Below, piece by piece: positions 13,880 to 51,274 of a stretch of 59,625 nucleotides of DNA. Both the position numbers and the translations under genes were made by a program. The stretch covers positions 1 through 59,625 of the forward strand of contig CANQBE010000004.1 of the NCBI GenBank assembly GCA_947589515.1, given 5' to 3'. The notes under the pieces were generated by a model. That model saw nothing but the letters and a program-made list of their open reading frames with translations, did no database searches and was not told the origin of the DNA. Source of the stretch: an uncultured Bacilli bacterium. Its GTDB lineage: Bacteria > Bacillota_I > Bacilli_A > RF39 > UBA660. The stretch's first letter is position 1. The number at the start of each line of letters is the position of its first letter.

Positions 13880-14740
13880 TTATTCATATAAATGATTTTT
13901 CAGTACTAAAGAATAACTCTTTTCAAAAGAAACATTGTCTACATTTTTTAGTAATCCATAATTTTCTAACATTTGTTTTGTTGTGATTTCTTGTTTTAAT
14001 ACACTTTGTAACGTTAATCGTACACTTTTTTCATCTTGACAATATAGATCATAAAGTAAAATTGTATAGTAGAATGCAATAAAATATTGCTTTTCTGGCA
14101 TTTGATAATATAGTAAAGCTTTTTGATCATTTTGTAATACTTTTATGATATCTTCTCTAAAAATATTATTGTACATTTCTAATAATTTCGATAATCTCCA
14201 TTTTAAAACCTTTTGTTTGGTCATTTTATTTTCATCACTAACTTGTATTAATTCATATAACATAGGAATAACCTCTGAATATAAGAAAAGCCACTTCCAT
14301 TCTTTACAACTTTCATTATCTAAAAAAACATGCATCACTTCATGACCAATATGAATATGAGATAATTCATCAAGTTGATAGGGAATGTTGATACTACATG
14401 GGATGTGAGGACCATAAAAAGTTGAATAGTATACCTGAGGAGGTGTACATTGCTTCACTAGATATTGTGTTACAATTAAATCTTGATATTTTTCTTCAAT
14501 TTCTTTTGATTGTAAATATTTTTGTAAGTTTAATGTAACTTTCTCCATTTCTACATCGTATGTAGATTTCTTTAAATGTGGAATTTTATAATCTTTATTT
14601 TTCGTGATTTGAGATATTACTAATTCTGATATTGCTTCTTCTTTTTCACCAGGAATTATTAAATTATCACGATTGATTAAAACATTAGTAAGTGTTATTT
14701 TTTTTTGGATTGATTCATAATTGTTATCATAGATATTCAT
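13880..14740 (-). CDS. HExxH zincin-like protein (M3-like motif spacing)
   Basis: HIGHEVMH ... YSEVIPMLYE; RBS GGGGA before ATG 14740. Confidence 0.6.
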   Translation of the reverse strand: MNIYDNNYESIQKKITLTNVLINRDNLIIPGEKEEAISELVISQITKNKDYKIPHLKKSTYDVEMEKVTLNLQKYLQSKEIEEKYQDLIVTQYLVKQCTPPQVYYSTFYGPHIPCSINIPYQLDELSHIHIGHEVMHVFLDNESCKEWKWLFLYSEVIPMLYELIQVSDENKMTKQKVLKWRLSKLLEMYNNIFREDIIKVLQNDQKALLYYQMPEKQYFIAFYYTILLYDLYCQDEKSVRLTLQSVLKQEITTKQMLENYGLLKNVDNVSFEKSYSLVLKNHLYE

Positions 14741-14792
14741 ATTAGTTTTCCCCCATCTAATATTTCTTATTAACATGATTTTCATCATATTA

Positions 14793-14921
14793 ATAAAAAT
14801 AGTACCAACTGTATAGGTTGGTACTAATCTAAAGATTTTGGAATAGTACCTAACTCATTAAATTAGGTATTCCTGTTTAAATTTATGCGATTATTATAAC
14901 ATAAAAACGAGCTTGTAGCAA
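14793..14921 (-). ncRNA. Candidate ~95-nt small RNA with its own promoter and terminator
   Basis: TTGCTA(14921-14916)-17bp-TATAAT(14898-14893); hairpin tacctaatt..gagttaggta; terminator agtaccaac..gttggtact followed by T-run. Confidence 0.6.
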
Positions 14922-14998
14922 GTACGTTTTCTATTTTTTGCTCGAGTTTTCCGAGTAACTATCTATCTGGTATCCTAAGGGAAGAAGTTCAACAACTT
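14919..14998 (-). repeat. Cassette junction repeat R1 (tRNA 3'-end mimic GGATACCA)
   Basis: Matches 15737-15815 with 3 substitutions and 1 indel. Confidence 0.95.
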
Positions 14999-15117
14999 TT
15001 TAATAAAATATTACTCGAACACTTGTTTTTATATATAATAAATAGTATACTTTTTATAGGGAATATCAGTTGTTGGGTGTCTACCTCCAATCTTTAGAGA
15101 AAGGGGGTTTGATAAAA

Positions 15118-15210
15118 ATGAAAACTAAGACTTTTATTTTAAAAGTTCTCAAGCTCATTACTATCATTTTATTTCTCCTTATCATTATGATAGTAGTTAT
15201 AAAAAAATGA
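15118..15210 (+). CDS. Type I toxin-like peptide A, 30 aa (MKTKTFILKVLKLITIILFLLIIMIVVIKK)
   Basis: Promoter TTGTTT(15023)-17-TATACT(15046), RBS AAGGGGG, single TM helix with basic ends, convergent antisense promoter. Confidence 0.78.
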   Translation: MKTKTFILKVLKLITIILFLLIIMIVVIKK

Positions 15211-15347
15211 CACTCATTCGCTAGAATAAGTGTCTAACACAATATAGTGGGTAGACATTCAATTCGGAAAAACTGAATGTTCCCTTTTTTATTTTATGCA
15301 AGTTTCCTTGACAAATACATATTATCACAATATGGATTTTTTTGCAA
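15200..15347 (-). ncRNA. Antisense RNA A (span includes its promoter)
   Basis: TTGCAA(15347-15342)-17-TAATAT(15324-15319); conserved 5' hairpin CAAG-GAAA-CUUG; terminator gacacttattc..gaatgagtgtc plus T-run. Confidence 0.7.
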
Positions 15348-15500
15348 GTTTCATTCATTTTATGACAAAAAGAGAATTGCACTTTGACAAATTTAGTATC
15401 AAATTGTATTGTGTTAAAAATAAATGTTTGTTATGATTTGTATAGGAATATTTAACAGTTGAGTGCTTGCCAAACTTCATAAAGAAGAGAGGCTGATAGT

Positions 15501-15584
15501 ATGTCTAAGAAAGATTTTTTAATCTTATCACTTATTCTTATTATTCTTTTACTAATAGCCTTACTTTTTACTTTTGTAATATAG
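15501..15584 (+). CDS. Type I toxin-like peptide B, 27 aa (MSKKDFLILSLILIILLLIALLFTFVI)
   Basis: Promoter TTGTGT(15409)-17-TATGAT(15432), RBS AGAGG; paralog at 50645. Confidence 0.82.
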   Translation: MSKKDFLILSLILIILLLIALLFTFVI

Positions 15585-15594
15585 TATTCTATGT

Positions 15595-15739
15595 AAAAGA
15601 AAAGCACTCAATCTAACAAGATTAAGTGCTAACCAATATATTGGCGAGTACTCAACATTGCGTTGTTAAGTATTTCCTTTTTATTTTATGCAAGTTTCCT
15701 TGACAAATACATAATAACACAAAAACGCACTTTTATCAA
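15595..15739 (-). ncRNA. Antisense RNA B (span includes its promoter)
   Basis: TTGATA(15739-15734)-17-TATTAT(15716-15711); same 5' hairpin; terminator agcacttaatc..gattgagtgct plus T-run. Confidence 0.72.
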
Positions 15740-15815
15740 GTACGTTTTCTATTTTTGCTCGAGTTTTCCGAGTAACTATCTATCTGGTGCCCTAAGGGAA
15801 GAAGTACAACAACTT
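15737..15815 (-). repeat. Cassette junction repeat R2 (tRNA 3'-end mimic AGGGCACCA)
   Basis: Near-identical to 14919-14998; AGGGCACCAGATAG equals the tRNA-Arg 3' end plus flank at 51206-51193. Confidence 0.95.
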
Positions 15816-15817
15816 AT

Positions 15818-16390
15818 CTATCCATTTTGATTTTTACTATAACACTCTTTTTTATAATATAATGTTTTTAATTTATCTAGTCCCAATGTATTATAATTAA
15901 TTTCATCAAATCCATAAGAAATTAATTCATCGATTAATTTTTTTCTTTGTTCTTCTAGTGGCAATTCATAATAAATTGAATTATCATAATAAACTAATAA
16001 TCCGATATCCTTAATTTCTTGCAATTGAATTTTACTATTCATACCTTTCTTATAATAATGATGGTCATATTTAAGAGTATCAAATATTTTTTTATAATCA
16101 CATTCTGATAATCTTTTTTCTAATGCAATTAACTCGTTAAAAGAAACTTCATTTATATCTAATTCTTTTAGTAAATTATTTTGAACTTTAAATGAACTGC
16201 CATTACAACTTCTCAATCTAATACAAGAATTTTTCATTTCATTTTCACTTAGATTATCTAAATTTTTATTAGTATAGTAGATATCATGTGTTTTAACATT
16301 AAAATCATTATAAAACCCATTATTTTTTAAAAAAGTATCATAATAATTAAAATTATTTTTTAATTTTATACCAACTTCAACTATTTGCAT
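15818..16390 (-). CDS. CYTH-like (triphosphate tunnel) protein, cassette cargo
   Basis: N-terminal EVGIK (degenerate ExExK), DIYY, IRLR and IKDIGLL pattern; RBS GGAGG. Confidence 0.6.
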   Translation of the reverse strand: MQIVEVGIKLKNNFNYYDTFLKNNGFYNDFNVKTHDIYYTNKNLDNLSENEMKNSCIRLRSCNGSSFKVQNNLLKELDINEVSFNELIALEKRLSECDYKKIFDTLKYDHHYYKKGMNSKIQLQEIKDIGLLVYYDNSIYYELPLEEQRKKLIDELISYGFDEINYNTLGLDKLKTLYYKKECYSKNQNG

Positions 16391-16437
16391 AACTGTTTTG
16401 CCTCCATAAATATTTTGTTAATTGAGTTTGTCAATTA

Positions 16438-16546
16438 GCAAGTATGTTTTCTAAATTGAAAATTTAACAATTAAATCTATAAAAATTATATCATGAATTC
16501 GACCATTTTAAAACTCGAACCATAAAAGTCCGAGTAACTATCAATC
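16438..16546 (-). repeat. tRNA-proximal conserved arm R3 (hairpin, extended -10 promoter, leader motif)
   Basis: 16477-16535 matches 51127-51185 at 58/59 positions; minus-strand TGATATAAT at 16493-16485. Confidence 0.95.
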
Positions 16547-16620
16547 TGGTGCCGAATGACATAGTCGAAATGTCCTCTGACCCTTACCAAGGGCCTGTTT
16601 TACCGCTAAACTAAATCGGC
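16547..16620 (-). tRNA. tRNA-Thr(GGT), CCA encoded, non-canonical T-arm
   Basis: Cloverleaf GCCGATT/ATTCGGC, anticodon arm GGCCC-TTGGTAA-GGGTC, T-arm GACAT-TTCGACT-ATGTC; promoter TTGCAT(16661)-17-TAAACT. Confidence 0.88.
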
Positions 16621-16743
16621 AATTACTCTTATAGTTTAATATAAATTAGTATGAGATGCAAGTCCTTTTTTTCTTTTTCCTGTGTCAATCTAACAGACAT
16701 CCTCTTTTTTCCTTCATATAATATGGTGAAGGGAAGGGATAAT

Positions 16744-17112
16744 ATGTTAAATTGGAGCTTACTTCAAAATTTATTAGTAATCGCTATTGCTTGTAGTAGT
16801 ATTACGGTAATTTTTATTCAGAAGACAAAGAAATTTTGTCGAAATAGTAAATGTATTATTATACAAGGCTTTCTTACCAATATGATATTAGGCTTCTTCT
16901 TTTGTCAAACTTTCACAAATGCCAATGTGATTCATAGTTTGTGGGTTGGCCTATTTAGTTTTTTAGGTGCTGATACTATCTATAAAAGTTTGGAAGGTAA
17001 ACTTTCTAGTTATAAAGATTTAATAGGAAAAGAAGAGAATACAACTTCACCATCAGAAATGAATCCTGATATTCAAGATACCGATATTATAGGAGAGATT
17101 GATTATGACTAA
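16744..17112 (+). CDS. Holin-like small membrane protein (about 3 TM)
   Basis: Three hydrophobic segments, acidic tail, overlaps a cell-wall hydrolase gene. Confidence 0.55.
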   Translation: MLNWSLLQNLLVIAIACSSITVIFIQKTKKFCRNSKCIIIQGFLTNMILGFFFCQTFTNANVIHSLWVGLFSFLGADTIYKSLEGKLSSYKDLIGKEENTTSPSEMNPDIQDTDIIGEIDYD

Positions 17113-18043
17113 AAATTATATGACATATCCTTTAAAAAATATGCGCATTACTTGTCGATATGATGAAGGAAGCCATCGCAATCACTGTATCAATGTAGCA
17201 GATGGCTTAGTTGATTATCCAATTGATGATGCTGGAATCGATACAGGAAGAGATCCTATTTACTGTTGCTGTGATGAAATGAAAGTTACCAATGTTCAAG
17301 GAGTAGGAAATGGTTATACCAATACGATTTGGTTAGTCTCTACTTCTCCAGTTGTTACCCCAACATTTACCGATATTGCTTATATTGCTCTTACGCATTC
17401 TAATGATTCCGACTTAAAAAATATCAAAGTAGGGGATACTTTTAAGCGAGGCGAAATTATTTGCTATGAAGGAGTAGATGGGGCTACTGCTAATCATATT
17501 CATATGTCTTGCGGACGAGGATACTGCGATAATTGGAAACAAAATTCAAATGGTGCTTGGATTATGACACCAGGAACATCCGTAAAACCCGAAGATGTAT
17601 TTTATCTTGATCGTAGTTTTACTAATGAAATTTGGGGTGGATCATTAAATTGGAAGGAGTTACCAACAGAAGAAAAAAAAATCGTAGGAACTCCTGTTAG
17701 TCGAAATCCATCTGTGAATCAAGTGGAAGTATTAGTAGATAATTTGAATGCTAGAAGTGATCCTAGTACTACTTCTTCTAGTAATGGTTATATTCGAAAA
17801 GGAATTTATCAAGTTTTAGAAGAAAAGAAACAAGTCGATTACGTTTGGGTCAAAGTAGAATCTTATTGGATTGCTATGAATGAAAATTGGACGAAATATT
17901 ATCCAAAAGAAGAATCTACTTCTACTTGTCAAGAAGAATTAGAACAACTAAAGGAAACGTATCCAAGATTAATCTTTCGCTGTAATAAAACCGGAAAGTA
18001 TATTATATATTTAGAAGCCGGAAAAAGTCTTTATTTAAATTAA
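17105..18043 (+). CDS. Endolysin-like M23-type peptidase with SH3b-like cell-wall-binding domain
   Basis: SH..YPID, ANHIHM (HxH), LNARSDPST; no signal peptide. Confidence 0.7.
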   Translation: MTKNYMTYPLKNMRITCRYDEGSHRNHCINVADGLVDYPIDDAGIDTGRDPIYCCCDEMKVTNVQGVGNGYTNTIWLVSTSPVVTPTFTDIAYIALTHSNDSDLKNIKVGDTFKRGEIICYEGVDGATANHIHMSCGRGYCDNWKQNSNGAWIMTPGTSVKPEDVFYLDRSFTNEIWGGSLNWKELPTEEKKIVGTPVSRNPSVNQVEVLVDNLNARSDPSTTSSSNGYIRKGIYQVLEEKKQVDYVWVKVESYWIAMNENWTKYYPKEESTSTCQEELEQLKETYPRLIFRCNKTGKYIIYLEAGKSLYLN

Positions 18044-19770: not shown

Positions 19771-20343
19771 ATGAAAGAACAAAAAGTAGGTCTTACTGCA
19801 ACGAATTGGATTTTATCTATATTAGGTATTTTGATATTAAGTTTACTGATTATTTTACCACCAGTATTTCGTGTGGTGTTTAAAGAAGAAGAGGTGATTC
19901 TACCACAACCAGAGCCTGTTCTTCCTGTTACGACTACTACTTGCACGATTGAAAATAGAATAGGAGAAAATTATACAGAGCGGGAAACAATTTCTTTAGA
20001 ACATCGTGGTACAGAACTTGAAAATTATACCAAAGATATTCAGAGAACTTATACAGATCCTAGTGTTTATGAAACCGATAAACAAAATCATGGTAGATTA
20101 GTAACTGCTTATAGTATTTTATCTGGATTTACTTATTCTATTACACCGAATGATGAAACATTTGTATTAAGTATTCATGAAAATTATGATTTAAATACTT
20201 TTCAAGAAAGTACTTTAGTGATTCCAGGAGATACCGAACCAACTACCGTAAATTCAGAGTACCAGTTGAAAGATTCTGTTACCATCATTACTCAAGATTT
20301 AACTACGAATGGTTATCTTTGTACTTCAGACAGCACAGAATAA
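19771..20343 (+). CDS. Membrane-anchored hypothetical protein
   Basis: N-terminal TM helix and Pro-rich linker; 3' end overlaps the gerAB-like gene by 41 bp. Confidence 0.75.
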   Translation: MKEQKVGLTATNWILSILGILILSLLIILPPVFRVVFKEEEVILPQPEPVLPVTTTTCTIENRIGENYTERETISLEHRGTELENYTKDIQRTYTDPSVYETDKQNHGRLVTAYSILSGFTYSITPNDETFVLSIHENYDLNTFQESTLVIPGDTEPTTVNSEYQLKDSVTIITQDLTTNGYLCTSDSTE

Positions 20344-21412
20344 AAATTCCAAATAGAAGAAAAAGAGCGATGCTAGTCATTAAATATAAATCTAGTGGAA
20401 AAGTAAATAAAGTTGTCACAATGATAAAAATAAGACCAATGAGAGCTAAAGAAATATGCTCTTTTTTCTTTTTTAAGAAACTATTGATCATTTGATTTAA
20501 TAAATAGATGCCTAAAATAATCACAAATAAACTATTTAGTATATTATTAAAGGCTAAAAACACTTCTACGCGTTCTAAGATATTTAAAAACGATATTTTT
20601 TTGTAGATAATCATATCAGGATGTTGGTAAATATTAGTTAAATGGATTCCTAATACGGAAATAATAATCATTAGTTGTATAAAAGTAAATAGAATTGATA
20701 AAAGGGTCAAAAGATAGGGCAACTTTTTAAAATGTTTCGTATTTTCCATCTCTTTTTTGGGAATCGAAAATAGTAAAAAGAAAGGAATCATGGATGATAA
20801 AAAATATATAAGAGAACTCGATAAACTTTTTCGAACCGTTGTAGTAAGCAATGGTTTTAAATTTGATAAATTCATATATTTCATGAGACCAATACTCCCA
20901 AATAGAAAGATAAAAATAGAAAAATAGAAAAAGATTTCACTAATTTTACTAATTGTTTTGATTCCTTTTGTCACAATATATAGAATCGTAATCATGAGAC
21001 TAACAGAAATGACTAGTAGTCCTACTTCTTTTAATACATAGTAATGCAGAAAAGAAATGAGAATCGAAAAAGAATAAATACTACTAATGCCAATTAATAG
21101 AAAAAAGAAAAAAGAAAAGACAACTTTTGGAAATATTGGAAATTTTTTTTGCATCATTTGTACAATTCCTTCCGGATATTTGTGATGAAGGTAAAAAATA
21201 AAACTGGCTAGTATTAAGATGAAAATACCCCCTAATAAAATCGAAAAAATACTATCATTTCCGCATTGATTGGTTAATGTATAATATCCTACATTCATAC
21301 TAAAAGAATTTAATAGAAAAAAAGTAAGGGTTGCATATTGATAAGAAGTAATTTTATCTAGTTTCATGGAATAATTCTCCTTGTAAATAGTTTTCTTTTT
21401 CTTTGGTTTCAA
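20303..21412 (-). CDS. gerAB: Spore germination receptor B subunit (GerAB/APC family); start uncertain
   Basis: About 10 TM helices, ILERVE motif, third gene of a gerA-type operon. Confidence 0.8.
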   Translation of the reverse strand: MKPKKKKTIYKENYSMKLDKITSYQYATLTFFLLNSFSMNVGYYTLTNQCGNDSIFSILLGGIFILILASFIFYLHHKYPEGIVQMMQKKFPIFPKVVFSFFFFLLIGISSIYSFSILISFLHYYVLKEVGLLVISVSLMITILYIVTKGIKTISKISEIFFYFSIFIFLFGSIGLMKYMNLSNLKPLLTTTVRKSLSSSLIYFLSSMIPFFLLFSIPKKEMENTKHFKKLPYLLTLLSILFTFIQLMIIISVLGIHLTNIYQHPDMIIYKKISFLNILERVEVFLAFNNILNSLFVIILGIYLLNQMINSFLKKKKEHISLALIGLIFIIVTTLFTFPLDLYLMTSIALFLLFGIFILCCLKYKDNHS

Positions 21413-22343
21413 ACGAAAAGTGAAAGTTTAATTTTGATAATAAATTGGGTGTTTTTTGATAATAACGATAATCATTTTGATAGATTTTTTGAGTTAATTT
21501 TAAAATATCATAGTCTTTCGTTTGAAATTTAGTTAGAAAAGATAATAATTTTGGTTTTATGCTTTGTTCAAAATTCTCTTTTTGATTTACTGTAGTCAGA
21601 AAGTGAAAATAGATCTCGTTTTTTTTCGTTGTTAGTAATGTTTGATTTTCGAAAATTGTATAAGGGGATATGGTAGTTTTCTGAAGGGTATTTTTTAATA
21701 AATTCCAAAGAATCGTATCTTCCGTCGATAATTCTTCTAATACTTGATAATTTTTAATTAAAGTGATTCCTCGTAGCAAGATTTCTTGGTTTTCGTAAGT
21801 GATAGTTGGCAAAAAGGTGTTTTGATCTATGAATAATTCTTGCATCATCGTTTCTAAATCTTGTGGTTTACTCATCGCTGTTTCTTTATAATTCGTGTTT
21901 AATAGATGATTGATTTGTTCAGCTTCTATTTGTTCTTTCATAAATGTTTCTAAAGGAATCTCTTTTAATAAAATCACATTAAAATTATTTCGATATTCAT
22001 TATTCTGTAGAAAGTTATTGATAATATTAGATAGATGATGATTAATTGCTTCTTCTGTTAAAATGAGTAAATCAATATGCGATAAATAAATTCTTTTATT
22101 GCTTTTTAAATAAATCATTTGAAAAGCCTCTTCTAAAGTTGATGCTTGACTAGTATAAGTAGTAAAATTTTCTTCAATTTTTCCATCATCTAAACTTCCA
22201 TCCATTACATTGATTACTAACTGATATTGATTTTCTTGGTAATCAATGCCTAATGTATTGACGATACTTAATTCATTTAGTTCTGTATAAGAAGTACATC
22301 CTGTTGAAAGAAGAATGCCTAATATGAATATCCATTTTTTCAT
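21354..22343 (-). CDS. gerAC: Spore germination receptor C subunit lipoprotein
   Basis: Lipobox STGC, YTELNELSIVNTLGID, IYLSH. Confidence 0.88.
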   Translation of the reverse strand: MKKWIFILGILLSTGCTSYTELNELSIVNTLGIDYQENQYQLVINVMDGSLDDGKIEENFTTYTSQASTLEEAFQMIYLKSNKRIYLSHIDLLILTEEAINHHLSNIINNFLQNNEYRNNFNVILLKEIPLETFMKEQIEAEQINHLLNTNYKETAMSKPQDLETMMQELFIDQNTFLPTITYENQEILLRGITLIKNYQVLEELSTEDTILWNLLKNTLQKTTISPYTIFENQTLLTTKKNEIYFHFLTTVNQKENFEQSIKPKLLSFLTKFQTKDYDILKLTQKIYQNDYRYYQKTPNLLSKLNFHFSFETKEKENYLQGELFHETR

Positions 22344-22344
22344 T

Positions 22345-23778
22345 TTATCGACCTCGTATTCTGTTTTTAGTGGTTAGTAAAGGATTTCGTTTTTTAATTT
22401 GATTACCACTATTGATTTTTAAGATAGCATCTTTCTGTTCTACTTTAATAAATGGTGAAAAAGGGGCTAAGTATGGTTTTTGGAAGGAGGTAATACTAGC
22501 AAGTTTCGTAACTAATAAAATCAGTCCCAAAAAGATTCCATAGATTCCTAACATGGCGGCTAAAATCATAAGTAAGATTCGCCAAAAGCGAATGGCTGAA
22601 GTTAATTCAATGGAAGTAAAGGCAAGACCAGAAATGGCACTAATAGCAACTACGATAATCATAATGGGAGAAATAATTCCTGCTTGCACAGCTGCATCTC
22701 CTAACACAAGACCACCTAAAATCGAGACGGCTGTTCCCATAGTAGATGCCATTCGCATATCACTTTCTCTTAGAATTTCAAAAGAAATCGTCATAATGAG
22801 TCCTTCGACTAAGGCCGGGAAGGGGACAGATCTTCTTTGCGATAAAAAGTTAATTAATAAATCTGTGGTTACCGAATCATGGTTATGGGTTGTAATCGCA
22901 ATATAGTATGCTGGAATAAAAATTGCGATGAAAAAAGCAAGGACACGAATAAAACGGATAAAAGTAATACTGAATGCTTTTTGATAATAGTCATCAGGAT
23001 TATGAAAAAAGTCGATAAAAAAGCAGGGCATAATTAATGCATAGGGACTATTATCGACTAGAATACAACATTTTCCCTCTAATAAGGCCATACTCACTAA
23101 ATCCGGTCTTTCGGTTGTAATAATAGTAGGAAATACGCTATTTTTTTTGACTAAGTATTTTTTTAAATAACCACTATCAATAATCCCATCAATATCAATC
23201 TTTTTGAGATTGTGAATTACTTCTTTTACAAGTGTATCTTCCACAATGTTTTGCATATAGAAAACACCAACCTTGGTTTTGGTTTCTTTACCAATTTCTA
23301 AATCCGCAATCCATAAGTGTTCACTTTTTATTCTTCTACGAATGAGTCCAAAATTTTTATTAAAATTTTCAGTAAAACTGTCTTTCGGTCCACGAATCGA
23401 TAATTCACTATCTACGGTATTAATTCCACGATCTAATTGTGCCTTTGTTTCAAAAGCAAATATTTCTTGATCACTAATATAAATAATGGTGTACCCATTC
23501 CAGATTTTCTTTAAAAAGTCGGCATAATCTTTCACAATGACACGATTATGTCCTGGAATATTATTATATAAATAAGTAAATAAATCCTCATTTTTTAATA
23601 GGTCTTCTTCTACGATATAACTGATATTTCGTAAAATAGTACCTGTAATATCCTCACTACTTGCTAGTACTTCCGAATATACAATATGAATCGTTTGATT
23701 GTTGATTTCTATTTTTTTATCGATAATATCGCTTGCTTGGTTCGTATCTCTTTTTAGTTGTTCAATCATGAAATCCAC
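22345..23778 (-). CDS. gerAA: Spore germination receptor A subunit
   Basis: RGPKDSFTE, TERPD, EILRES, ILGGLVLGDAAVQAG, PYLAPFSP; SigG/F-like CATACTA upstream. Confidence 0.93.
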   Translation of the reverse strand: MDFMIEQLKRDTNQASDIIDKKIEINNQTIHIVYSEVLASSEDITGTILRNISYIVEEDLLKNEDLFTYLYNNIPGHNRVIVKDYADFLKKIWNGYTIIYISDQEIFAFETKAQLDRGINTVDSELSIRGPKDSFTENFNKNFGLIRRRIKSEHLWIADLEIGKETKTKVGVFYMQNIVEDTLVKEVIHNLKKIDIDGIIDSGYLKKYLVKKNSVFPTIITTERPDLVSMALLEGKCCILVDNSPYALIMPCFFIDFFHNPDDYYQKAFSITFIRFIRVLAFFIAIFIPAYYIAITTHNHDSVTTDLLINFLSQRRSVPFPALVEGLIMTISFEILRESDMRMASTMGTAVSILGGLVLGDAAVQAGIISPIMIIVVAISAISGLAFTSIELTSAIRFWRILLMILAAMLGIYGIFLGLILLVTKLASITSFQKPYLAPFSPFIKVEQKDAILKINSGNQIKKRNPLLTTKNRIRGR

Positions 23779-46086: not shown

Positions 46087-48198
46087 TTATTTTGATTTTA
46101 TTTTTTGCGTATTTTTCTTTAAATATGATTGGTTTAAATCAAAATTATGACACGATTTTAAGATGATATCTAAAAAATCCTTTTTATCTTCTAAATGATA
46201 GTTGCTAAGCCAGTATTCTAATAGGAGTTGCTGTGTGTATGAATCTGAGGAAATATTAAAAATGGGAATCCATAGATCATATAAATTTTTATATAAAAAG
46301 TCTTTTTTTGCTTTTGCTATTACATTTTCTATTACGCCACTATTTTTTAAAAAGGCCAATGGTATTATATTATTATTAGAATCATTCATTCCGCAAAGCA
46401 TATTAGAAAAAAGTAATTCATCAAAGTTAGTAGATAAATTATATAATGAAGAATATAAGGCTTCTTGGAGTGGAGTTCTTTTATTGTTTGTTAACTTTGT
46501 TTCTTGAAATAAACCAAGAAATCTGTTATCGATAGATTTTTTTAAAAACTCAACATTTTGATGATTTGGATTGGTATAAAAACAATCGTAATTTGCCGTG
46601 TTTGGATTTCTATAATCAATGCATATTACTGAATCTAATAATAGTTTATTTTCTAATTGAAATTCTTGAAAGTATGCATCATCAGATATTAAATTTCTAT
46701 AAAATTCTGATAAGGAAAATAGAAATTGCTGATTTTTTTCTTGGTGATTTTTCTGTTTTGTATTGATAATAGTTTCTATCATATGATTAGAATATTTTCT
46801 TACTAAGAAGTCATTGTGTAGCAAGTTGTATAATGTTATATTTGATTCAGAAGAGGATGGATGATAGAAAAAATGTACCGGTTTCTTGTTTTCTAAGAAA
46901 CTAATTATTTCTTGTTTGAATTGTATATAATAATTACATTCATAAAAAGCAGGAATCTTTTTATATTGAGTCATATTAAAATTTTCCCAAACTTTCTTTA
47001 AACTTTCTGTATATTCTCTAAAAACATAATCTTGCATATTATCATTTTGTTCTTTTATTAGATATTGGTAACAATTATTATCTTCAAAAATATAGCAGGT
47101 ATCACTTTCTAATAAAATTTGATTCAAATAATTTTTGTTGAAAAGTGTTACTGTATGATATGAATGAATTTGACAAGTAATCGACATATTATTTTCTTGG
47201 CATTTTTGATTTAATTTTTCTGTTAATTCCTGCATATTAATATTTTCCAATTCTCCTATTATAGAAATAGAATATACAGTTATTTTTTGATTCTGGTAAT
47301 CTTCTTTTAATTGTTTCCAAATAGAATCATATATCATAGAAAATGAAATCAAAGCATTATTATTTTTTAAGTTAGTAGTTGTTACGTAATCTCCATTTTG
47401 TAATGATGCACTTTTTAATTCATTTTGAAATATTACATTCCATGAGAAATTTTTCTTTAATTTTTTGATTAAGATATCTTTATAGATAATATGAATTGAT
47501 TTTTCAATGGCTGTTGTTTGGATTTCTTTTTGATATTTACCAATTTCTAAATAGAAGTCTTGAATATTTTTAAGACATATTGGATGAGAAAAAGTAAAAT
47601 ATAATATATTATTTTTGATGATGGTATCTTGATACAATAGACTATCTATAAATTGATTGTAGATATCATGAGAAATTTCAAAATAGTAATCTTTACTACA
47701 AACAAAATTGGTTAATAAATCATAATAAGACTTTAAATAATTGGTTAATGTTTCATTTGGTATTTGAAAAACATGGTTATATTCTATTATTTCTTTATAC
47801 GATTTTAAAAAATTTTTTGCTTTTTCTTGAAAATGAATGCATTGTTTTTCAGATAAAAAGGAATTTTGATATTGAATCATAATTTCAGATAGCAAATCTA
47901 TTAGGTTATTATTGGGTGTAATTTTACTTTCAAAAGAAATTGGAGTAAAGGTGAAATCATAATTTTGGTGTTCGGAAGCAAGTATAATCTTTCCTTTATG
48001 TAAATGTTCATATACAATTTCTGATATTTTTCTTCCAAATTCATATGGATTTTCACTTTGTATAGTAAATGGCATTTCCTTTTTAGTTTTCCCGTTAATT
48101 AGTGATAGATTATTTTTATTGGGAAGTAAAGTAAGAAAATAGGTAAAATCTAATACGATATTACAGAATGATAAAAAATTGCTATCCTTATAATTCAT
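46087..48198 (-). CDS. Large hypothetical protein, very AT-rich
   Basis: 703-aa ORF, RBS AGAGG; no motif recognised. Confidence 0.7.
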   Translation of the reverse strand: MNYKDSNFLSFCNIVLDFTYFLTLLPNKNNLSLINGKTKKEMPFTIQSENPYEFGRKISEIVYEHLHKGKIILASEHQNYDFTFTPISFESKITPNNNLIDLLSEIMIQYQNSFLSEKQCIHFQEKAKNFLKSYKEIIEYNHVFQIPNETLTNYLKSYYDLLTNFVCSKDYYFEISHDIYNQFIDSLLYQDTIIKNNILYFTFSHPICLKNIQDFYLEIGKYQKEIQTTAIEKSIHIIYKDILIKKLKKNFSWNVIFQNELKSASLQNGDYVTTTNLKNNNALISFSMIYDSIWKQLKEDYQNQKITVYSISIIGELENINMQELTEKLNQKCQENNMSITCQIHSYHTVTLFNKNYLNQILLESDTCYIFEDNNCYQYLIKEQNDNMQDYVFREYTESLKKVWENFNMTQYKKIPAFYECNYYIQFKQEIISFLENKKPVHFFYHPSSSESNITLYNLLHNDFLVRKYSNHMIETIINTKQKNHQEKNQQFLFSLSEFYRNLISDDAYFQEFQLENKLLLDSVICIDYRNPNTANYDCFYTNPNHQNVEFLKKSIDNRFLGLFQETKLTNNKRTPLQEALYSSLYNLSTNFDELLFSNMLCGMNDSNNNIIPLAFLKNSGVIENVIAKAKKDFLYKNLYDLWIPIFNISSDSYTQQLLLEYWLSNYHLEDKKDFLDIILKSCHNFDLNQSYLKKNTQKIKSK

Positions 48199-48366
48199 AA
48201 TGAACCTCTCGTTATTTCCAAAATGGAATCATCATTTTTTATATCTTATTACTATAGCATTGAATTTTCATTTTATCAATTATAAAAGTATTAAAATTGC
48301 TGCTATCCTTGTCAATTCATTCTATTTGTGATATAATATGGGCATTCTTTTAAGAGGTGATTTCAT

Positions 48367-49431
48367 ATGAAAACAGGATGGGATTATGAATATTTTGCAT
48401 TTAAAAAAAGAAATCTACAAGAACAATTAGAAAAAACCGAAAATATCAAGCAACGAAAAAAAATAGAAGAAGATATCGATCTATGTGATTATCTTACTAC
48501 TATTCTTTTGTTTTCAACAGGCGAAACGATAGATTCTGATATTACGATGAAACAGTTTGTAGAAGAAATCTATCAACAAGATTTTTCTTATCCAATACCA
48601 GTAGTAGAACAAGAAAAAATAGATGAAATCACGTTATCTTTTTTAAAACTACCTAAATTAAAAATAGAACGGGCTATCACATCTATTTCTGCAACTGATT
48701 CTATTCAAATTGTTGGCGATTTTATAAAAGACCAATTTCATGAAAAACATTATCAATTATATAAAGATATCTTTATGGATCATAGTCATTATGTGCTTTT
48801 TGATCCAAATACTGATTTATCTAATGTTGTTTCTTTAGATGGAGAAATGCTTGTACGCATTAAGAAAAGTAATGATATGGAAATGTTATCATCTATTGCT
48901 CACGAAATGGGACATCTATATAGAATGTCAAATAATTCTCAAATGATTTTCACTAATTTTTATCGTGAATATGAATCTTTTTTCTATGAATTTCATTTAT
49001 TATTATGGTTAATTCAAAATCATATTTATAGAAAAGAAGCTACCAATCGTTTTTTACAGTTATTTGATATTGTAGAAAAGGTATCCTATATGAGATATTG
49101 TATTCAAAACTATCAGTTAAATCAAATAGCTTCTTCGAAACAATTTACAGAAAAAATCAATCAATTTCATTTAAGAAGAGATTTGCATTTTAGAAAAAAT
49201 CAAGATTTATTCGATTTATATATTACAGCACTTGGTATGGATTTCCAAACATATTTTCATTCCTTTATGGCAGTATTGAATCATATGGATGATTTTGATC
49301 GATATGAACAGGTGATAAAAGGAATCAAGAATCGAAATGAAAGTACTATTCAAGCAAAAATATTAACTAAAAATAAAAATTCATATCAATCTTATGTAGA
49401 ATATAGAAGTATGCTTCAAAATCTTTCTTAA
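48367..49431 (+). CDS. HExxH zincin-like protein (M3-like motif spacing)
   Basis: IAHEMGH ... REYESFFYE; promoter TGATATAAT, RBS GAGGTG. Confidence 0.65.
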   Translation: MKTGWDYEYFAFKKRNLQEQLEKTENIKQRKKIEEDIDLCDYLTTILLFSTGETIDSDITMKQFVEEIYQQDFSYPIPVVEQEKIDEITLSFLKLPKLKIERAITSISATDSIQIVGDFIKDQFHEKHYQLYKDIFMDHSHYVLFDPNTDLSNVVSLDGEMLVRIKKSNDMEMLSSIAHEMGHLYRMSNNSQMIFTNFYREYESFFYEFHLLLWLIQNHIYRKEATNRFLQLFDIVEKVSYMRYCIQNYQLNQIASSKQFTEKINQFHLRRDLHFRKNQDLFDLYITALGMDFQTYFHSFMAVLNHMDDFDRYEQVIKGIKNRNESTIQAKILTKNKNSYQSYVEYRSMLQNLS

Positions 49432-49542
49432 GATTGATCAGAATTTTGAATGATAGAGAATTCGAAATTTGAAATATGACATATCATTCTATATCATATA
49501 TAGGACAAAATCATATAGTGATGAAAATCAGAGAAAATAGGA

Positions 49543-50064
49543 GTGATTACAGCAGATATTAATCAATTGAAACTTAGACAGGAAATTGAAAACTTAGCTC
49601 GTTTACAATACCATAAACTTTATGAATACAATATGCATGGTCCAGATACTTTTGACTGTGCCGGTTTTGTATGGTTTGTATACCATGAAATTTTAAATAT
49701 TAATTTATATGAAAAGGGAATAGGGTTGTCTACTACAACTAAAATGATGACAAGTATGTATGGAAATCTCCAATTATTTTCAGAAAATGATATGGACAAA
49801 GATTTAAAGAAACTCAAAAAAGGAGATATTGTTTTTTTGCATAGACAATCGTTAGAAGATACAATTCCCAAAAAAGATAATAAATATCCTGGACATTGTG
49901 GAATTTATTTAAATGATAATTATTTTATTCATTGTTCGAGACCAAAGGGTAGAGTCATTATTAGTAATTTTTTACAAAATAGATATTGGCAAAATGTCTT
50001 AGTTGCTAGTAAAGATATTATTGGAGATTCCAAAGTATTGAAAATTACGAAAAGATATTATTAA
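49543..50064 (+). CDS. NlpC/P60 cysteine peptidase, no signal peptide
   Basis: GPDTFDCAGF, GDIVF, GHCGIY and FIHC motifs. Confidence 0.9.
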   Translation: MITADINQLKLRQEIENLARLQYHKLYEYNMHGPDTFDCAGFVWFVYHEILNINLYEKGIGLSTTTKMMTSMYGNLQLFSENDMDKDLKKLKKGDIVFLHRQSLEDTIPKKDNKYPGHCGIYLNDNYFIHCSRPKGRVIISNFLQNRYWQNVLVASKDIIGDSKVLKITKRYY

Positions 50065-50095
50065 ATAGAAAATATAGTGTTCTACAAATGCACAA

Positions 50096-50476
50096 TTATT
50101 GATACTTTTTAGATAAAGAATAGATTCTTTTTAAAACTGTTTCATTATCATAGTTATCATATTTTGGTGCTCTTTCAATTTCGGGAATTTGAAATAAATC
50201 CCAAAATTCTAATTTAATGTGATATGTTGCAATTCCTTCTGGTGTATTAATTCCAGCAATAAAATCGCCTTGAAACATTGGATCTGTTTCTTCATTAAAA
50301 TGTTTTTTGGATTTCCAAGATATATCGGGATTGCAATTACATAAAGTACAAAATAAAATCAACCTATTTTTATATAATTCTCCAAAGGTATGATGCCCAT
50401 CACTTATATCTTTAACGTTTATACTATGATTATTTTTTTCTTGTTGAATGAAATTATTTATTTCTTGAATATTCAT
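50096..50476 (-). CDS. Phage-type WDGH-like domain protein, cassette cargo
   Basis: SDGHHTFGELY, WKSKKH, FIAGINTPEG.ATYH, WDLF and PKYDNY motifs; RBS AGGAGG. Confidence 0.65.
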   Translation of the reverse strand: MNIQEINNFIQQEKNNHSINVKDISDGHHTFGELYKNRLILFCTLCNCNPDISWKSKKHFNEETDPMFQGDFIAGINTPEGIATYHIKLEFWDLFQIPEIERAPKYDNYDNETVLKRIYSLSKKYQ

Positions 50477-50644
50477 GTGGCCTCCTAACGCGCATATTTA
50501 ACTTTCTATATGCAAGCGTATTTTCTAAATTATCATAAATTTAGTGCAAAAGTGTTAAATGAAGAACGCTTGTTTGATATATTTTATTAGGAACATTTAA
50601 TAGTTGGGTGCTGCCTCTATCTTTATAGATTGAAGGTGATGCTG

Positions 50645-50728
50645 ATGAATAAGAAAGATTTTTTAATCTTTGCTTTAATCGTTGTCATCCTTTTACTTAT
50701 AGCATTACTTTTCGTAATTCTAAATTAA
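50645..50728 (+). CDS. Type I toxin-like peptide C, 27 aa (MNKKDFLIFALIVVILLLIALLFVILN)
   Basis: RBS AAGGTGA; paralog of 15501-15584. Confidence 0.82.
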   Translation: MNKKDFLIFALIVVILLLIALLFVILN

Positions 50729-50872
50729 AAGTGCACCTAACTCAAACAGTTTGAATTAGGTGCTACACAAATTATTGGGTAACACTCAACACTGCAATAT
50801 TGAATGTTCCTTTTTATTTTATGCAAGTTTCCTTGACAAATACATAATAACATATAAAAGAACTTTTGGCAA
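50725..50872 (-). ncRNA. Antisense RNA C (span includes its promoter)
   Basis: TTGCCA(50872-50867)-17-TATTAT(50849-50844); same conserved 5' block; terminator gcacctaattc..gagttaggtgc plus T-run. Confidence 0.72.
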
Positions 50873-50886
50873 GTTCTCTATATCAA

Positions 50887-50946
50887 GTTCGAAAAAGTTC
50901 GAACAGAAATGCCAATGGTGCGAATAATGTAGTAATTTACAACTTT
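50887..50946 (-). repeat. Divergent cassette junction R5 (CGCACCA core)
   Basis: Minus strand aaagttgt-aaattactacattatt-CGCACCA-ttggcatttct-GTTCGAActttTTCGAAC; same layout as R1/R2. Confidence 0.7.
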
Positions 50947-50950
50947 CTGT

Positions 50951-51043
50951 CTAATTAATCTCTATAATTATTGGTCTATGATCAGACCTTTCCTTCATCA
51001 TATCCTTTTGTTTTATAATTTTATATTCAAAATAATTTTTCAT
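50951..51043 (-). pseudogene. 30-aa remnant of an EEP (exo/endonuclease/phosphatase) gene
   Basis: MKNYFEYKIIKQKDMMKERSDHRPIIIEIN; SDHxP terminal motif; RBS GGGAG. Confidence 0.6.
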
Positions 51044-51089
51044 TTTCTATCTCCCATCTGATTTAAATTTGCATATTGGTTATCAATAT

Positions 51090-51197
51090 GCAAGTGTGTT
51101 TTCTAAATTGACAATATCAATTCAACCTATAAAAATTATATCATGAATTCGACCATTTTAAAACTCGAACTATAAAAGTCCGAGTTTGGTAACTATC
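51090..51197 (-). repeat. tRNA-proximal conserved arm R4
   Basis: Homologous to 16438-16546. Confidence 0.95.

Positions 51198-51274
<77 letters not shown>

Follow-up and report, generated by a model that had tools for sequence, protein, structure and literature searches.

The DNA analysed in this study, referred to as the window, was a stretch of 59,625 nucleotides of an uncultured Bacilli bacterium (assembly GCA_947589515.1, contig CANQBE010000004.1), whose genome comprised 1.1 Mb in 57 contigs and was 87% complete. The minus strand of the window contained a tRNA-Thr(GGT) gene at 16547–16620 (ARAGORN and Rfam tRNA, 53.7 bits), and the 3' end of this gene was found to be followed by an array of small gene units separated by repeated junctions. 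The matches of an Rfam scan of the window were two tRNAs only. Each junction was composed of a left half ending in CCA and a right half, R, with the sequence GATWGATAG..ACTCGR and a small hairpin. At the gene itself the left half was the T-arm, acceptor end and CCA of the tRNA, and these form the left half of an attB-like site. Inside the array the left half was a P half, containing AAAAGTTGT, about 21 nt and then CACCA. The sign ^ denotes the join of a left half with a right half, as in tRNA^R, P^R and P^P'.

The sequence CCA followed by GAT(A/T)GATAGTTACTCGG was present in three copies, one after tRNA-Thr(GGT) and two after pseudo-tRNA ends. The plus-strand form, TCCGAGTAACTATC(T/A)ATCTGGT(G/A)(C/T)C, was located at 14950, 15767 and 16529, with spacings of 817 and 762 bp. 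The original prediction for this DNA had described three junctions spaced by about 760 and 817 bp, with GAT(A/T) after every CCA, and all of these were confirmed. The CCA of the tRNA was followed by GATTGATAGTTACTCGG, and an A-for-T variant of this 20-mer was found at 15768–15787 in junction R2 and at 14951–14970 in junction R1. The pseudo-tRNA ends of both junctions read AAGTTGT-N21-CACCA with no tRNA ahead of the CCA, and the P half upstream of the CCA in R2/R1 read AAGTTGTTG(T/A)ACTTCTTCCCTTAGG(GC/AT)A. Junction R2 (15758–15815, minus strand) contained the P half AAGTTGTTGTACTTCTTCCCTTAGGGCA at 15788–15815, the CCA at 15785–15787 and the R sequence GATAGATAGTTACTCGGAAAACTCGAG, and junction R1 (14941–14998, minus strand) contained the P half AAGTTGTTGAACTTCTTCCCTTAGGATA at 14971–14998, the CCA at 14968–14970 and then R. 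About 106 bp were common to R1 (14893–14998) and R2 (15711–15815), forming the repeat families D1 and D2 with 87–95% identity.

The R half-site of the tRNA and the type A arm behind it occupied 16391–16546 on the minus strand, where R (GATTGATAGTTACTCGG) was followed by the hairpin ACTCGGAC..GTTCGAGT and then by TTTTAAAA. The type A arm, extending to 16391, contained a TG-extended promoter (TTTAAA-16-TATAAT, 16512–16485) and inverted repeats, and about 100–130 nt were conserved behind the junctions at tRNA-Arg, tRNA-Met and the contigs C22, C29 and C33 of the same genome. Unit 1 (16546–15785) consisted of the type A arm and an open reading frame (ORF) of 190 aa encoding a CYTH-like protein (15818–16390, minus strand). 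The stop codon of this ORF (15818–15820) was 2 nt from the AAGTTGT of R2, which agrees with the earlier observation that the cargo stop abuts the next junction. Unit 2 (15784–14968) contained two modules resembling type I toxin-antitoxin systems. Distal to R1, a unit with a small RNA (sRNA) was followed by a 302-aa ORF (13880–14788, minus strand) without any P half after it. The HExxH gene named in the prediction is this ORF, which contains the motif HEVMH and had no Pfam or NCBIfam match.

As had been noted before, no recombinase was found in the units. The contig of the window had no match to Phage_integrase, Resolvase, Y1_Tnp or RVT_1 (DDE transposases were not searched), and the units contained neither a large serine recombinase (LSR) nor a relaxase and are not themselves integrative mobilizable elements (IMEs). 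The array had also been called integron-like. Integrons and clusters of attC sites lacking integron-integrases (CALINs) are arrays of small, mostly single-gene cassettes separated by attC sites, imperfect palindromes that form hairpins as single strands; integrons have the tyrosine recombinase IntI beside an attI site with the promoter Pc, and toxin-antitoxin cassettes stabilise superintegrons. The R1 and R2 junctions (71 nt), folded as DNA on both strands, gave −3.6 to −6.1 kcal/mol with z from +0.47 to −0.99. PF00589 had no match on the contig of the window and two matches in the genome (C2 and C6), neither of them seen beside an array, in a search that did not include an IntI-specific profile. 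With no IntI and with junctions that do not fold like attC, the term integron-like was given up.

Cargo genes, small RNAs and the second array

The CYTH-like protein had no Pfam (including CYTH) or NCBIfam match. Its AlphaFold model had a pLDDT of 91.8, and the top Foldseek matches of the model (E 2e-7 to 1e-5, TM 0.43–0.58) were triphosphate tunnel metalloenzymes and class IV adenylyl cyclases, the highest-ranking with TM 0.5–0.58 and the best being 7ns8 (E 2e-7). By this model the protein is predicted to have the eight-stranded tunnel fold of the CYTH/triphosphate tunnel metalloenzymes, and the earlier assignment was upheld at the level of the fold. The hallmark of the CYTH family is an N-terminal ExExK motif. 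The alignment of the present family contained invariant E5 and G7 and near-invariant K9 residues (VEVGIK), with a glycine where the second glutamate is expected. A large protein collection contained 514 homologues, and the closer ones (79–88% identity) were located on short contigs. Neither the gene of the CYTH-like protein nor that of the 302-aa HEVMH protein was found in the 28 other genomes of the genus, and the latter was missing from the corresponding locus of the closest relative.

The first toxin-like peptide of unit 2, of 30 aa (MKTKTFILKVLKLITIILFLLIIMIVVIKK), was encoded at 15118–15210, and the second, of 27 aa (MSKKDFLILSLILIILLLIALLFTFVI), at 15501–15584, both on the plus strand; the second was preceded by a promoter-like sequence (TTGACA-17-TATTGT) at 15384–15412. 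Both peptides are hydrophobic and may represent type I toxins. The type B arm with antisense RNA 2, a putative antitoxin, was present on the minus strand at 15595–15739 and contained a hairpin, a promoter (TTGATA-17-TATTAT, 15739–15711) and a terminator (15630–15603), with a fold of −35.7 kcal/mol (z −5.0 against shuffled sequences). A second copy of the promoter block (family D3) was found with antisense RNA 1 at 15205–15349 on the minus strand (terminator 15234–15209, fold z −5.3). The sRNA of about 95 nt behind R1 was located, together with its promoter (TTGCTA-17-TATAAT, 14921–14893), at 14795–14921 on the minus strand, with a terminator at 14826–14800 and a fold z of −5.4. Five terminator-like sites were found against 0.3 expected.

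The minus-strand RNAs were convergent with the toxin transcripts, overlapped their 3' ends and possessed promoter-like and terminator-like sites of their own. Judged by anatomy, the modules would belong to the type I toxin-antitoxin systems, in which a small hydrophobic ORF is paired with a convergent antisense RNA. The peptide 2 family had exactly three perfect-pattern copies in the genome, all beside junctions (the others at 50645–50728 of the window and at C5:3876), and modules of this kind were recurrent cargo adjoining junctions. The toxin-antitoxin cassettes of the original prediction were supported by anatomy and by recurrence at junctions. Neither peptide 1 nor peptide 2 matched a Pfam family when E values of up to 10 were allowed. 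Related copies of the sRNA were present more than once in relatives. Sequence related to the sRNA region of the window (14759–14879) was found in the relative L037 in three tandem copies about 325 bp apart, which suggests that the sRNA family also occurs away from the array.

A second array was found in the window at 50887–51274 on the minus strand. It consisted of tRNA-Arg(TCT) (51198–51274), R with a type A arm, a mini unit of 270 bp containing a 30-aa ORF (51043–50951, minus strand) and an attP-like composite site, P^P' (50947–50887, minus strand). In this site the P half with CCA (50947–50916) was joined to a P'-type half (50915–50887), the type that occurs at the left ends of the recombinase elements presented below. 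Behind the second array were toxin-like peptide 3 (MNKKDFLIFALIVVILLLIALLFVILN, 50645–50728, plus strand), which is a paralogue of peptide 2, and a WDGH-domain gene (50096–50476, minus strand; Pfam PF25311, E 9e-35). The conserved match ended beside tRNA-Arg(TCT), next to a contig end, in four of the five relatives examined. The region 47500–51200 had no syntenic match in five relatives, one of which was 95% identical on the opposite side of the tRNA.

Distribution of the junction and linked recombinase elements

The search of the genome and its relatives for the junction, which had been proposed as a check, revealed 11 copies of CCA-GATWGATA..ACTCGR in the genome. Six of them were located directly after tRNAs (Thr-GGT, Arg-TCT, Leu-CAA, Met, Leu-TAG and Thr-CGT) and five after P halves (R1, R2, C22, C33 and C45). 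The 20-mer, with up to 2 mismatches, was found at four places in the genome and in 9 of the 151 genomes of the family (8 of the 150 from other genera), and its reversed control gave no match; the motif is therefore far above chance. In the other genera the 20-mer was likewise placed after the CCA of various tRNAs or after P halves, and one of these, in L015, was near-identical to R2. The pattern GATA-N(2-6)-ACTCGRA-N(2-12)-TCGAG was present in 21 of the 29 genomes of the genus with one control match overall, and being strict it misses variants such as the junction of G161. We read 58 junction sites, of which 33 followed tRNAs of at least 13 species or transfer-messenger RNA (tmRNA) and 25 did not. 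When 185,579 species were scanned for the exact pattern, each represented by one genome, 32 stretches were obtained, nearly all in records titled uncultured Bacilli, Tenericutes or Mycoplasmatota.

The conserved part of R extended over 30–40 nt, followed by a type A arm (terminator hairpin and promoter), a type B arm leading to toxin-antitoxin modules, or other arms with different terminators. The P halves shared AAAAGTTGT, which the tRNAs lacked, and their GTT..A..AT motif was positioned 4 nt further from the CCA than the T-arm motif of the tRNA. The P half ended in an acceptor-like heptamer and ACCA, and this end sometimes resembled the tRNA concerned; by eye, the P ends of R1 and R2 resembled tRNA-Arg(TCT) and those of L044 and L046 resembled tRNA-Thr(CGT). 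Other tRNA trailers of the genome were found to be loosely similar to R, with (G/T)AT.GA.A.TTAC (ATTGA..TTAC) followed by a hairpin with a different stem, for example at C18 tRNA-Gly(GCC), C18 tRNA-Glu, C56 tRNA-His and C29 tRNA-Ala. R may descend from or mimic a tRNA trailer or terminator typical of the lineage, or the R-like trailers may be old, diverged junctions. Several contigs of the genome ended within the conserved arms: the C17:1-52 end was identical to the arm at C22:1088–1160, and C29:1-212 continued into C33:9693–10191 with the same ORF start. Since the contig ends lie inside arms, the arrays break the assembly, and these breaks may also reflect strain heterogeneity in the sample.

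The same junctions were found to bound elements encoding an LSR. In L046 the order was tRNA-Thr(CGT), a 91-aa ORF, the LSR (Pfam Resolvase 5e-34, Recombinase 4e-18), a MobV-type relaxase (Mob_Pre, 3e-15), four cargo genes and P^R, and the right end of the element read AAAAGTTGTAGATAAC..CGCACCA and then GATTGATAGGAAACTCGAAC. L043 and L045 had the same layout behind tmRNA. The LSR unit of L104 contained an 89-aa ORF, a 629-aa LSR that was 56% identical to the LSR of L046 and a 414-aa ORF, a candidate relaxase by its position. This unit was placed inside an array with P^R on both sides, and the P half of its right end aligned with those of R1 and R2 and belonged to the same family. A recombinase acting in trans had been proposed, and in the genome of the window tRNA-His on C56 was directly followed by a 100-aa partner ORF and a fragment of an LSR, with 54% identity across all 178 residues. 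The partner ORF, of 89–100 aa, was found in 22 of the 29 genomes of the genus, where it was often multi-copy and, by comparison of coordinates, mostly beside an LSR gene. Decayed partner ORFs with stop codons adjoined junctions, as in the fragment after the junction of L059. One relative had a tyrosine-integrase element at such a site, and at least five units formed an array behind it (L044, L035). A second, complete LSR of the genome (567–582 aa, C7:28594–30297) had no tRNA or junction within the 12 kb examined.

In the attachment sites used by LSRs, outer motifs in inverted orientation flank a short crossover. At the left ends of the elements, P' had the sequence TTGAGCAATCTATTCTAACTTTTG or one close to it and carried AACTTTT, the inverse of the AAAAGTT in P, and the reconstructed site of the element was an imperfect inverted repeat, AAAAGTT ... 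CCA ... AACTTTT. The crossover is placed in or just before CACCA because the attL and attR of L046 share nothing more. In the alignment R and the P' of the elements were in register, and an offset of 5 bp between the right half-sites of attP and attB, which had been proposed by eye, was rejected. The LSR of L046 matched NCBIfam CcrB with 2e-35 and 122 bits against a cut-off of 900, and it is not a Ccr equivalog.

The orthologous tRNA-Thr(GGT) locus was compared, anchored on its conserved flanks, in nine species including that of the window, and its content was found to differ in all nine. Two loci were empty, four contained different small cargo, and three contained LSR elements or their left ends. 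In the closest relative (G155; flanks with 82–90% identity) the locus contained a 207-aa cargo gene, a P^R junction and a type B toxin-antitoxin arm, without the HExxH gene. G167 contained a 212-aa gene, and G161 contained a type A arm and a 315-aa kinase-like gene. The empty locus of G157 had kept GATTGATAATACTTGA after the CCA, and that of G163 had no R. In G168 a 91-aa partner ORF and a 637-aa LSR followed directly after the tRNA, and in G160 and G151 a left end of the LSR-element type followed directly after it, in G160 with a decayed partner ORF. Invariant content between the junctions would have spoken against the original prediction; at the level of species, the content was found to vary between congeneric genomes.

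The hypervariable content of this locus also bears on an alternative by which R is the tRNA 3' trailer or terminator of the lineage, the P^R sites are decayed tRNA copies and nothing between them is mobile. R does have a hairpin and often a T-run directly after the CCA, and the loose similarity of the other trailers (ATTGA..TTAC and a hairpin) fits such an origin. A trailer with nothing mobile behind it, however, does not account for content that differs in every species at a syntenic locus, for an empty site without R, for LSR elements bounded by the same junctions or for the AAAAGTTGT shared by the P halves and not found in tRNAs. We regard this explanation as hardly credible.

On the 5' side of tRNA-Thr, two ORFs of 153 and 314 aa (16651–18043) were conserved in relatives and had no Pfam or NCBIfam match; the 153-aa product is membrane-like and the 314-aa product is rich in Cys and His. 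A prophage beside the tRNA, with these two ORFs as holin and endolysin, was considered and rejected, as they had no Pfam or NCBIfam match and the flanks were chromosomal genes of NAD metabolism and spore germination. The region 20303–23778 contained Spore_permease and the N- and C-terminal domains of GerAC, of spore germination, despite a genome of about 1.1 Mb.

Origin of the recombinase-less units

Units were counted between successive junctions of the same strand, with duplicates counted once. There were 26 distinct units, one of which was the LSR element of L104. The other 25 contained no LSR, ranged from 639 to 3084 bp with a median of 1006 and mostly contained one ORF. In 20 units the ORFs had the orientation of the tRNA, and some units contained two to three genes or genes in the opposite orientation. 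A scan of the 20 largest cargo proteins gave no recombinase match. Matches were obtained for 11 of the 20, namely Fic, HAD, ADP-ribosylglycohydrolase, DUF488, a Ham1-UDG fusion, KilA-N, metallo-beta-lactamase fold, GATase/C26, AAA_14 ATPase, C39-like peptidase and a weak NTPase, and nine had none. In the units of the relatives and those of C22 and C45 of the own genome, many cargo proteins were of kinds that act on nucleotides or on groups derived from them (NUDIX, Ham1-UDG, NTPase_I-T, HD, CYTH-like, histidine phosphatase, ADP-ribosylglycohydrolase and Fic). It is possible that cargo predicted to act on nucleotides is linked with phage defence or counter-defence.

We consider it probable that the 3' end of tRNA-Thr(GGT) is an attachment-site hotspot of LSRs, at which integrative mobilizable elements integrate and recombinase-less units have accreted. 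In this lineage of gut Bacilli the elements carry an LSR and the 89–100-aa partner ORF, often with a MobV-type relaxase, and would integrate at the 3' ends of tRNAs. The left half of their target would be the T-arm, acceptor strand and CCA of the tRNA and the right half would be R. Each element would carry a P half at its right end, giving a boundary that reads P-CCA-R and a tRNA side that reads tRNA-CCA-R. The window would then be read, in order, as tRNA^R, the CYTH-like unit, P^R (R2), the toxin-antitoxin unit, P^R (R1), and the sRNA with the HExxH gene. Units 16546–15785 and 15784–14968, with no integration or transfer genes and bounded by what appear to be att sites of the resident LSR family, are best classed as cis-mobilizable elements (CIMEs) or accreted remnants, because the tRNA^R and P^R types of junction also bound LSR elements.

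By this model the recombinase-less units would be laid down by site-specific accretion, either together with an LSR element in cis or through the action of its LSR in trans. In one route, an element would excise together with a neighbouring segment through the distal P^R, integrate elsewhere and later depart alone. In another, the LSR would act directly on P^R circles. The junction proximal to the tRNA would remain usable, placing newer units nearer to the tRNA, and the toxin-antitoxin modules would probably stabilise the array. The P^P' site at 50947–50887 is the expected remnant of recombination between the left junction of an element and P^R, and from this we infer site-specific exchange among the junction types. 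The anatomy of the array, the distribution of the junction, the hypervariable locus and the physical linkage with LSR elements were observed directly, and from them we deduce the action of the LSR on these sites, the sequence of events and the function of the toxin-antitoxin modules.

Several points weigh against the hotspot reading. In the canonical LSR reaction attP is recombined with attB, and neither site survives integration; by this rule of directionality, an inner P^R together with tRNA^R needs a relaxed choice of sites or repeated accretion and excision. The LSR gene on C56 of the own genome was truncated at the contig end. Within the genus, no association was seen between the partner ORF and the junction pattern (16 genomes with both, five with the junction only, six with the ORF only and two with neither), and R may partly be a native tRNA trailer or terminator. 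At 13 metagenome loci with homologues of the CYTH-like gene (38–70% identity), the fetched flanks contained no tRNA, and the matches of a relaxed junction pattern at these loci were judged to be chance in AT-rich DNA; with no tRNA or junction nearby, these loci gave no sign of the CYTH-like unit moving as a unit. No circular junction or excision product was found in the contigs of public runs, which were short, had a depth of 3–5 and count neither way. These runs contained at most 0.43 of the sampled words, with the unique parts of the array only in short contigs. The summed depths of the toxin-antitoxin and arm segments were in the hundreds, reflecting many related copies. The joints seen in these contigs had short sides or extra letters, and a back-joint from 16535 to 14961/14985, considered as a circle, was rejected as its letters were those of a different R variant and belonged to another locus. 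The mobility of single units in trans, as originally predicted, thus found no support in the uninformative public contigs or at the 13 CYTH homologues, which lie outside any such context.

The units could also have arisen by decay, without site-specific mobility of their own, as deletion leftovers of larger LSR or tyrosine-integrase islands that are shuffled only by homologous recombination between the conserved 60–190-bp arms. Decayed partner ORFs with stop codons beside junctions and the tyrosine-integrase element at such a site in L044 fit this explanation. In length and similarity the arms would suffice for RecA, and contigs break at them, as in the C17 end identical to the C22 arm. Random deletion, however, would not be expected to give all 25 units an R at the start and a 31-nt P half at the end, and the P motif is conserved across genera, with L015, from another genus, nearly equal to R2. 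We find an origin of the units as relics, which the original prediction had named as a case that would refute it, improbable.

A further alternative is a serine-recombinase counterpart of the integron, a gene-capture platform in which each unit of about 1 kb, with a promoter-bearing R arm, one ORF and a P end, would be a cassette that LSRs insert and excise individually in trans. A circle would carry a single P^R, with tRNA^R playing the part of attI and P^R that of attC. The units are small and uniform (median 1006 bp) with mostly one ORF in the orientation of the tRNA, no more than 2 nt separate the P end from the CYTH-like stop codon, and a conserved promoter-bearing arm is found behind many junctions. 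The junction types tRNA^R, P^R and P^P' all occur, and P^P' (50947–50887) could be the leftover of the insertion of a P^R circle of the attL x attR type. With R and P' in register, the products of integration may stay usable as substrates. Against this, no circles were found, no cassette was present at two sites except for the multi-copy toxin-antitoxin arms, some units held two to three genes or the opposite orientation, distal units had no P end, and such promiscuity of sites is atypical of LSRs. We think this counterpart rather unlikely.

Some other mechanisms were considered and set aside. A likeness of R to the streptococcal dif site had suggested dif/Xer recombination, integrative mobile elements exploiting Xer (IMEX) or pdif modules; this was dropped, in a comparison without a dedicated test, as the junction lacks a palindrome and goes together with tRNA ends and LSR elements. 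Insertion of the IS200/IS605 type was rejected, as the genome contained one Y1 transposase (C39), the ends were without paired hairpins and the LSR elements fit better. Priming of a reverse transcriptase on CCA ends was rejected, as RVT_1 had no match in the genome, which is 87% complete.

Relation to known genomic islands

The comparisons made here refer to parts of the cited sources. In streptococci, the tandem accretion of CIMEs with integrative conjugative elements (ICEs) and IMEs has been described, and accretion with cis-mobilization was proposed (PMC5704250). The units of the present study resemble streptococcal CIMEs in being without integration genes, in keeping att sites and in their tandem arrangement with integrase elements at the 3' ends of tRNAs or other genes (PMC5704250). 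In contrast, streptococcal CIMEs are mostly associated with tyrosine integrases and are several kb in size (PMC5704250), whereas an LSR, mostly single-gene units of about 1 kb with a promoter arm, and many tRNAs as well as tmRNA were found here.

The ssrA islands of Dehalococcoides, with the CcrB-like DsiB, also contain a serine-recombinase module by attL and form tandem islands at the end of tmRNA, bounded by its repeats, and those islands without integration modules were interpreted as cis-mobilizable (PMC3146451). They differ in having one target (ssrA), an exact direct repeat of 20 bp, much larger islands and integration modules of six genes (PMC3146451), whereas the present units have a degenerate pseudo-tRNA half and a conserved right half-site at tRNAs of at least 13 species. 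The staphylococcal cassette chromosome (SCC, including SCCmec) at rlmH is likewise built of stacked cassettes mobilised by LSRs, with internal att boundaries and some cassettes without ccr, and in SCC composite islands the outermost cassette is taken as the oldest (PMC13739063). SCC differs in its target, a protein gene, in its size, which is 1–200 kb by the filter of the tool used and typically tens of kb, and in the lack of tRNA mimicry in the parts of the source consulted (PMC13739063). The tycheposons of Prochlorococcus are anchored at tRNAs, and their repeated integration pushes older elements outward and leaves scattered partial tRNAs and remnants; 910 of 937 elements had tyrosine recombinases and a minority had LSRs (bioRxiv 10.1101/2020.12.28.424599). 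Unlike the present units they carry replication genes, and a regular promoter-bearing array of about 1 kb was absent from the consulted passages of that source (bioRxiv 10.1101/2020.12.28.424599).

The array shares with integrons and CALINs the arrangement of small, mostly single-gene units, with a recombinase possibly encoded elsewhere. Unlike integron cassettes, the units have their own promoters, and their anchor is a tRNA and not an attI site with Pc. The array had been put forward as an undescribed system, which is too strong a term, as tandem units without an integrase and bounded by att sites are known, from the parts of the sources consulted, for CIMEs, SCC, the ssrA islands of Dehalococcoides and tycheposons. 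By comparison with these systems, the array appears to be a scaled-down version of an established mode of island building, and it is not an integron. Its unusual features are the small units of about 1 kb, mostly of one gene with a promoter of its own, the targeting of many tRNAs and of tmRNA by means of a half-site that travels with the units, and the host lineage. In the literature searched, we found no description of these elements in the lineage or of LSR-based arrays of units of about 1 kb at tRNAs.

If the hotspot reading is true, much of the accessory content of these uncultured gut Bacilli, with genomes of about 1 Mb, would consist of att-bounded micro-islands behind tRNA genes. The cargo organised in this way would include Fic, NUDIX, Ham1-UDG, HD, CYTH-like, HAD, ADP-ribosylglycohydrolase, KilA-N, AAA ATPase and toxin-antitoxin-like genes. 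The recombinases would form an LSR family whose natural target is the near-universal T-arm and CCA end of tRNA with a short conserved trailer. Such a family would inform the study of site choice and control of direction in serine integrases and would be a source of new integrase-att pairs. The array would also be a test case for tandem accretion that shrinks towards integron-like single-gene cassettes. If the integron counterpart were true, any tRNA or tmRNA end bearing R would be a reusable insertion point, and these ends would constitute a distributed store of accessory genes for reduced genomes.

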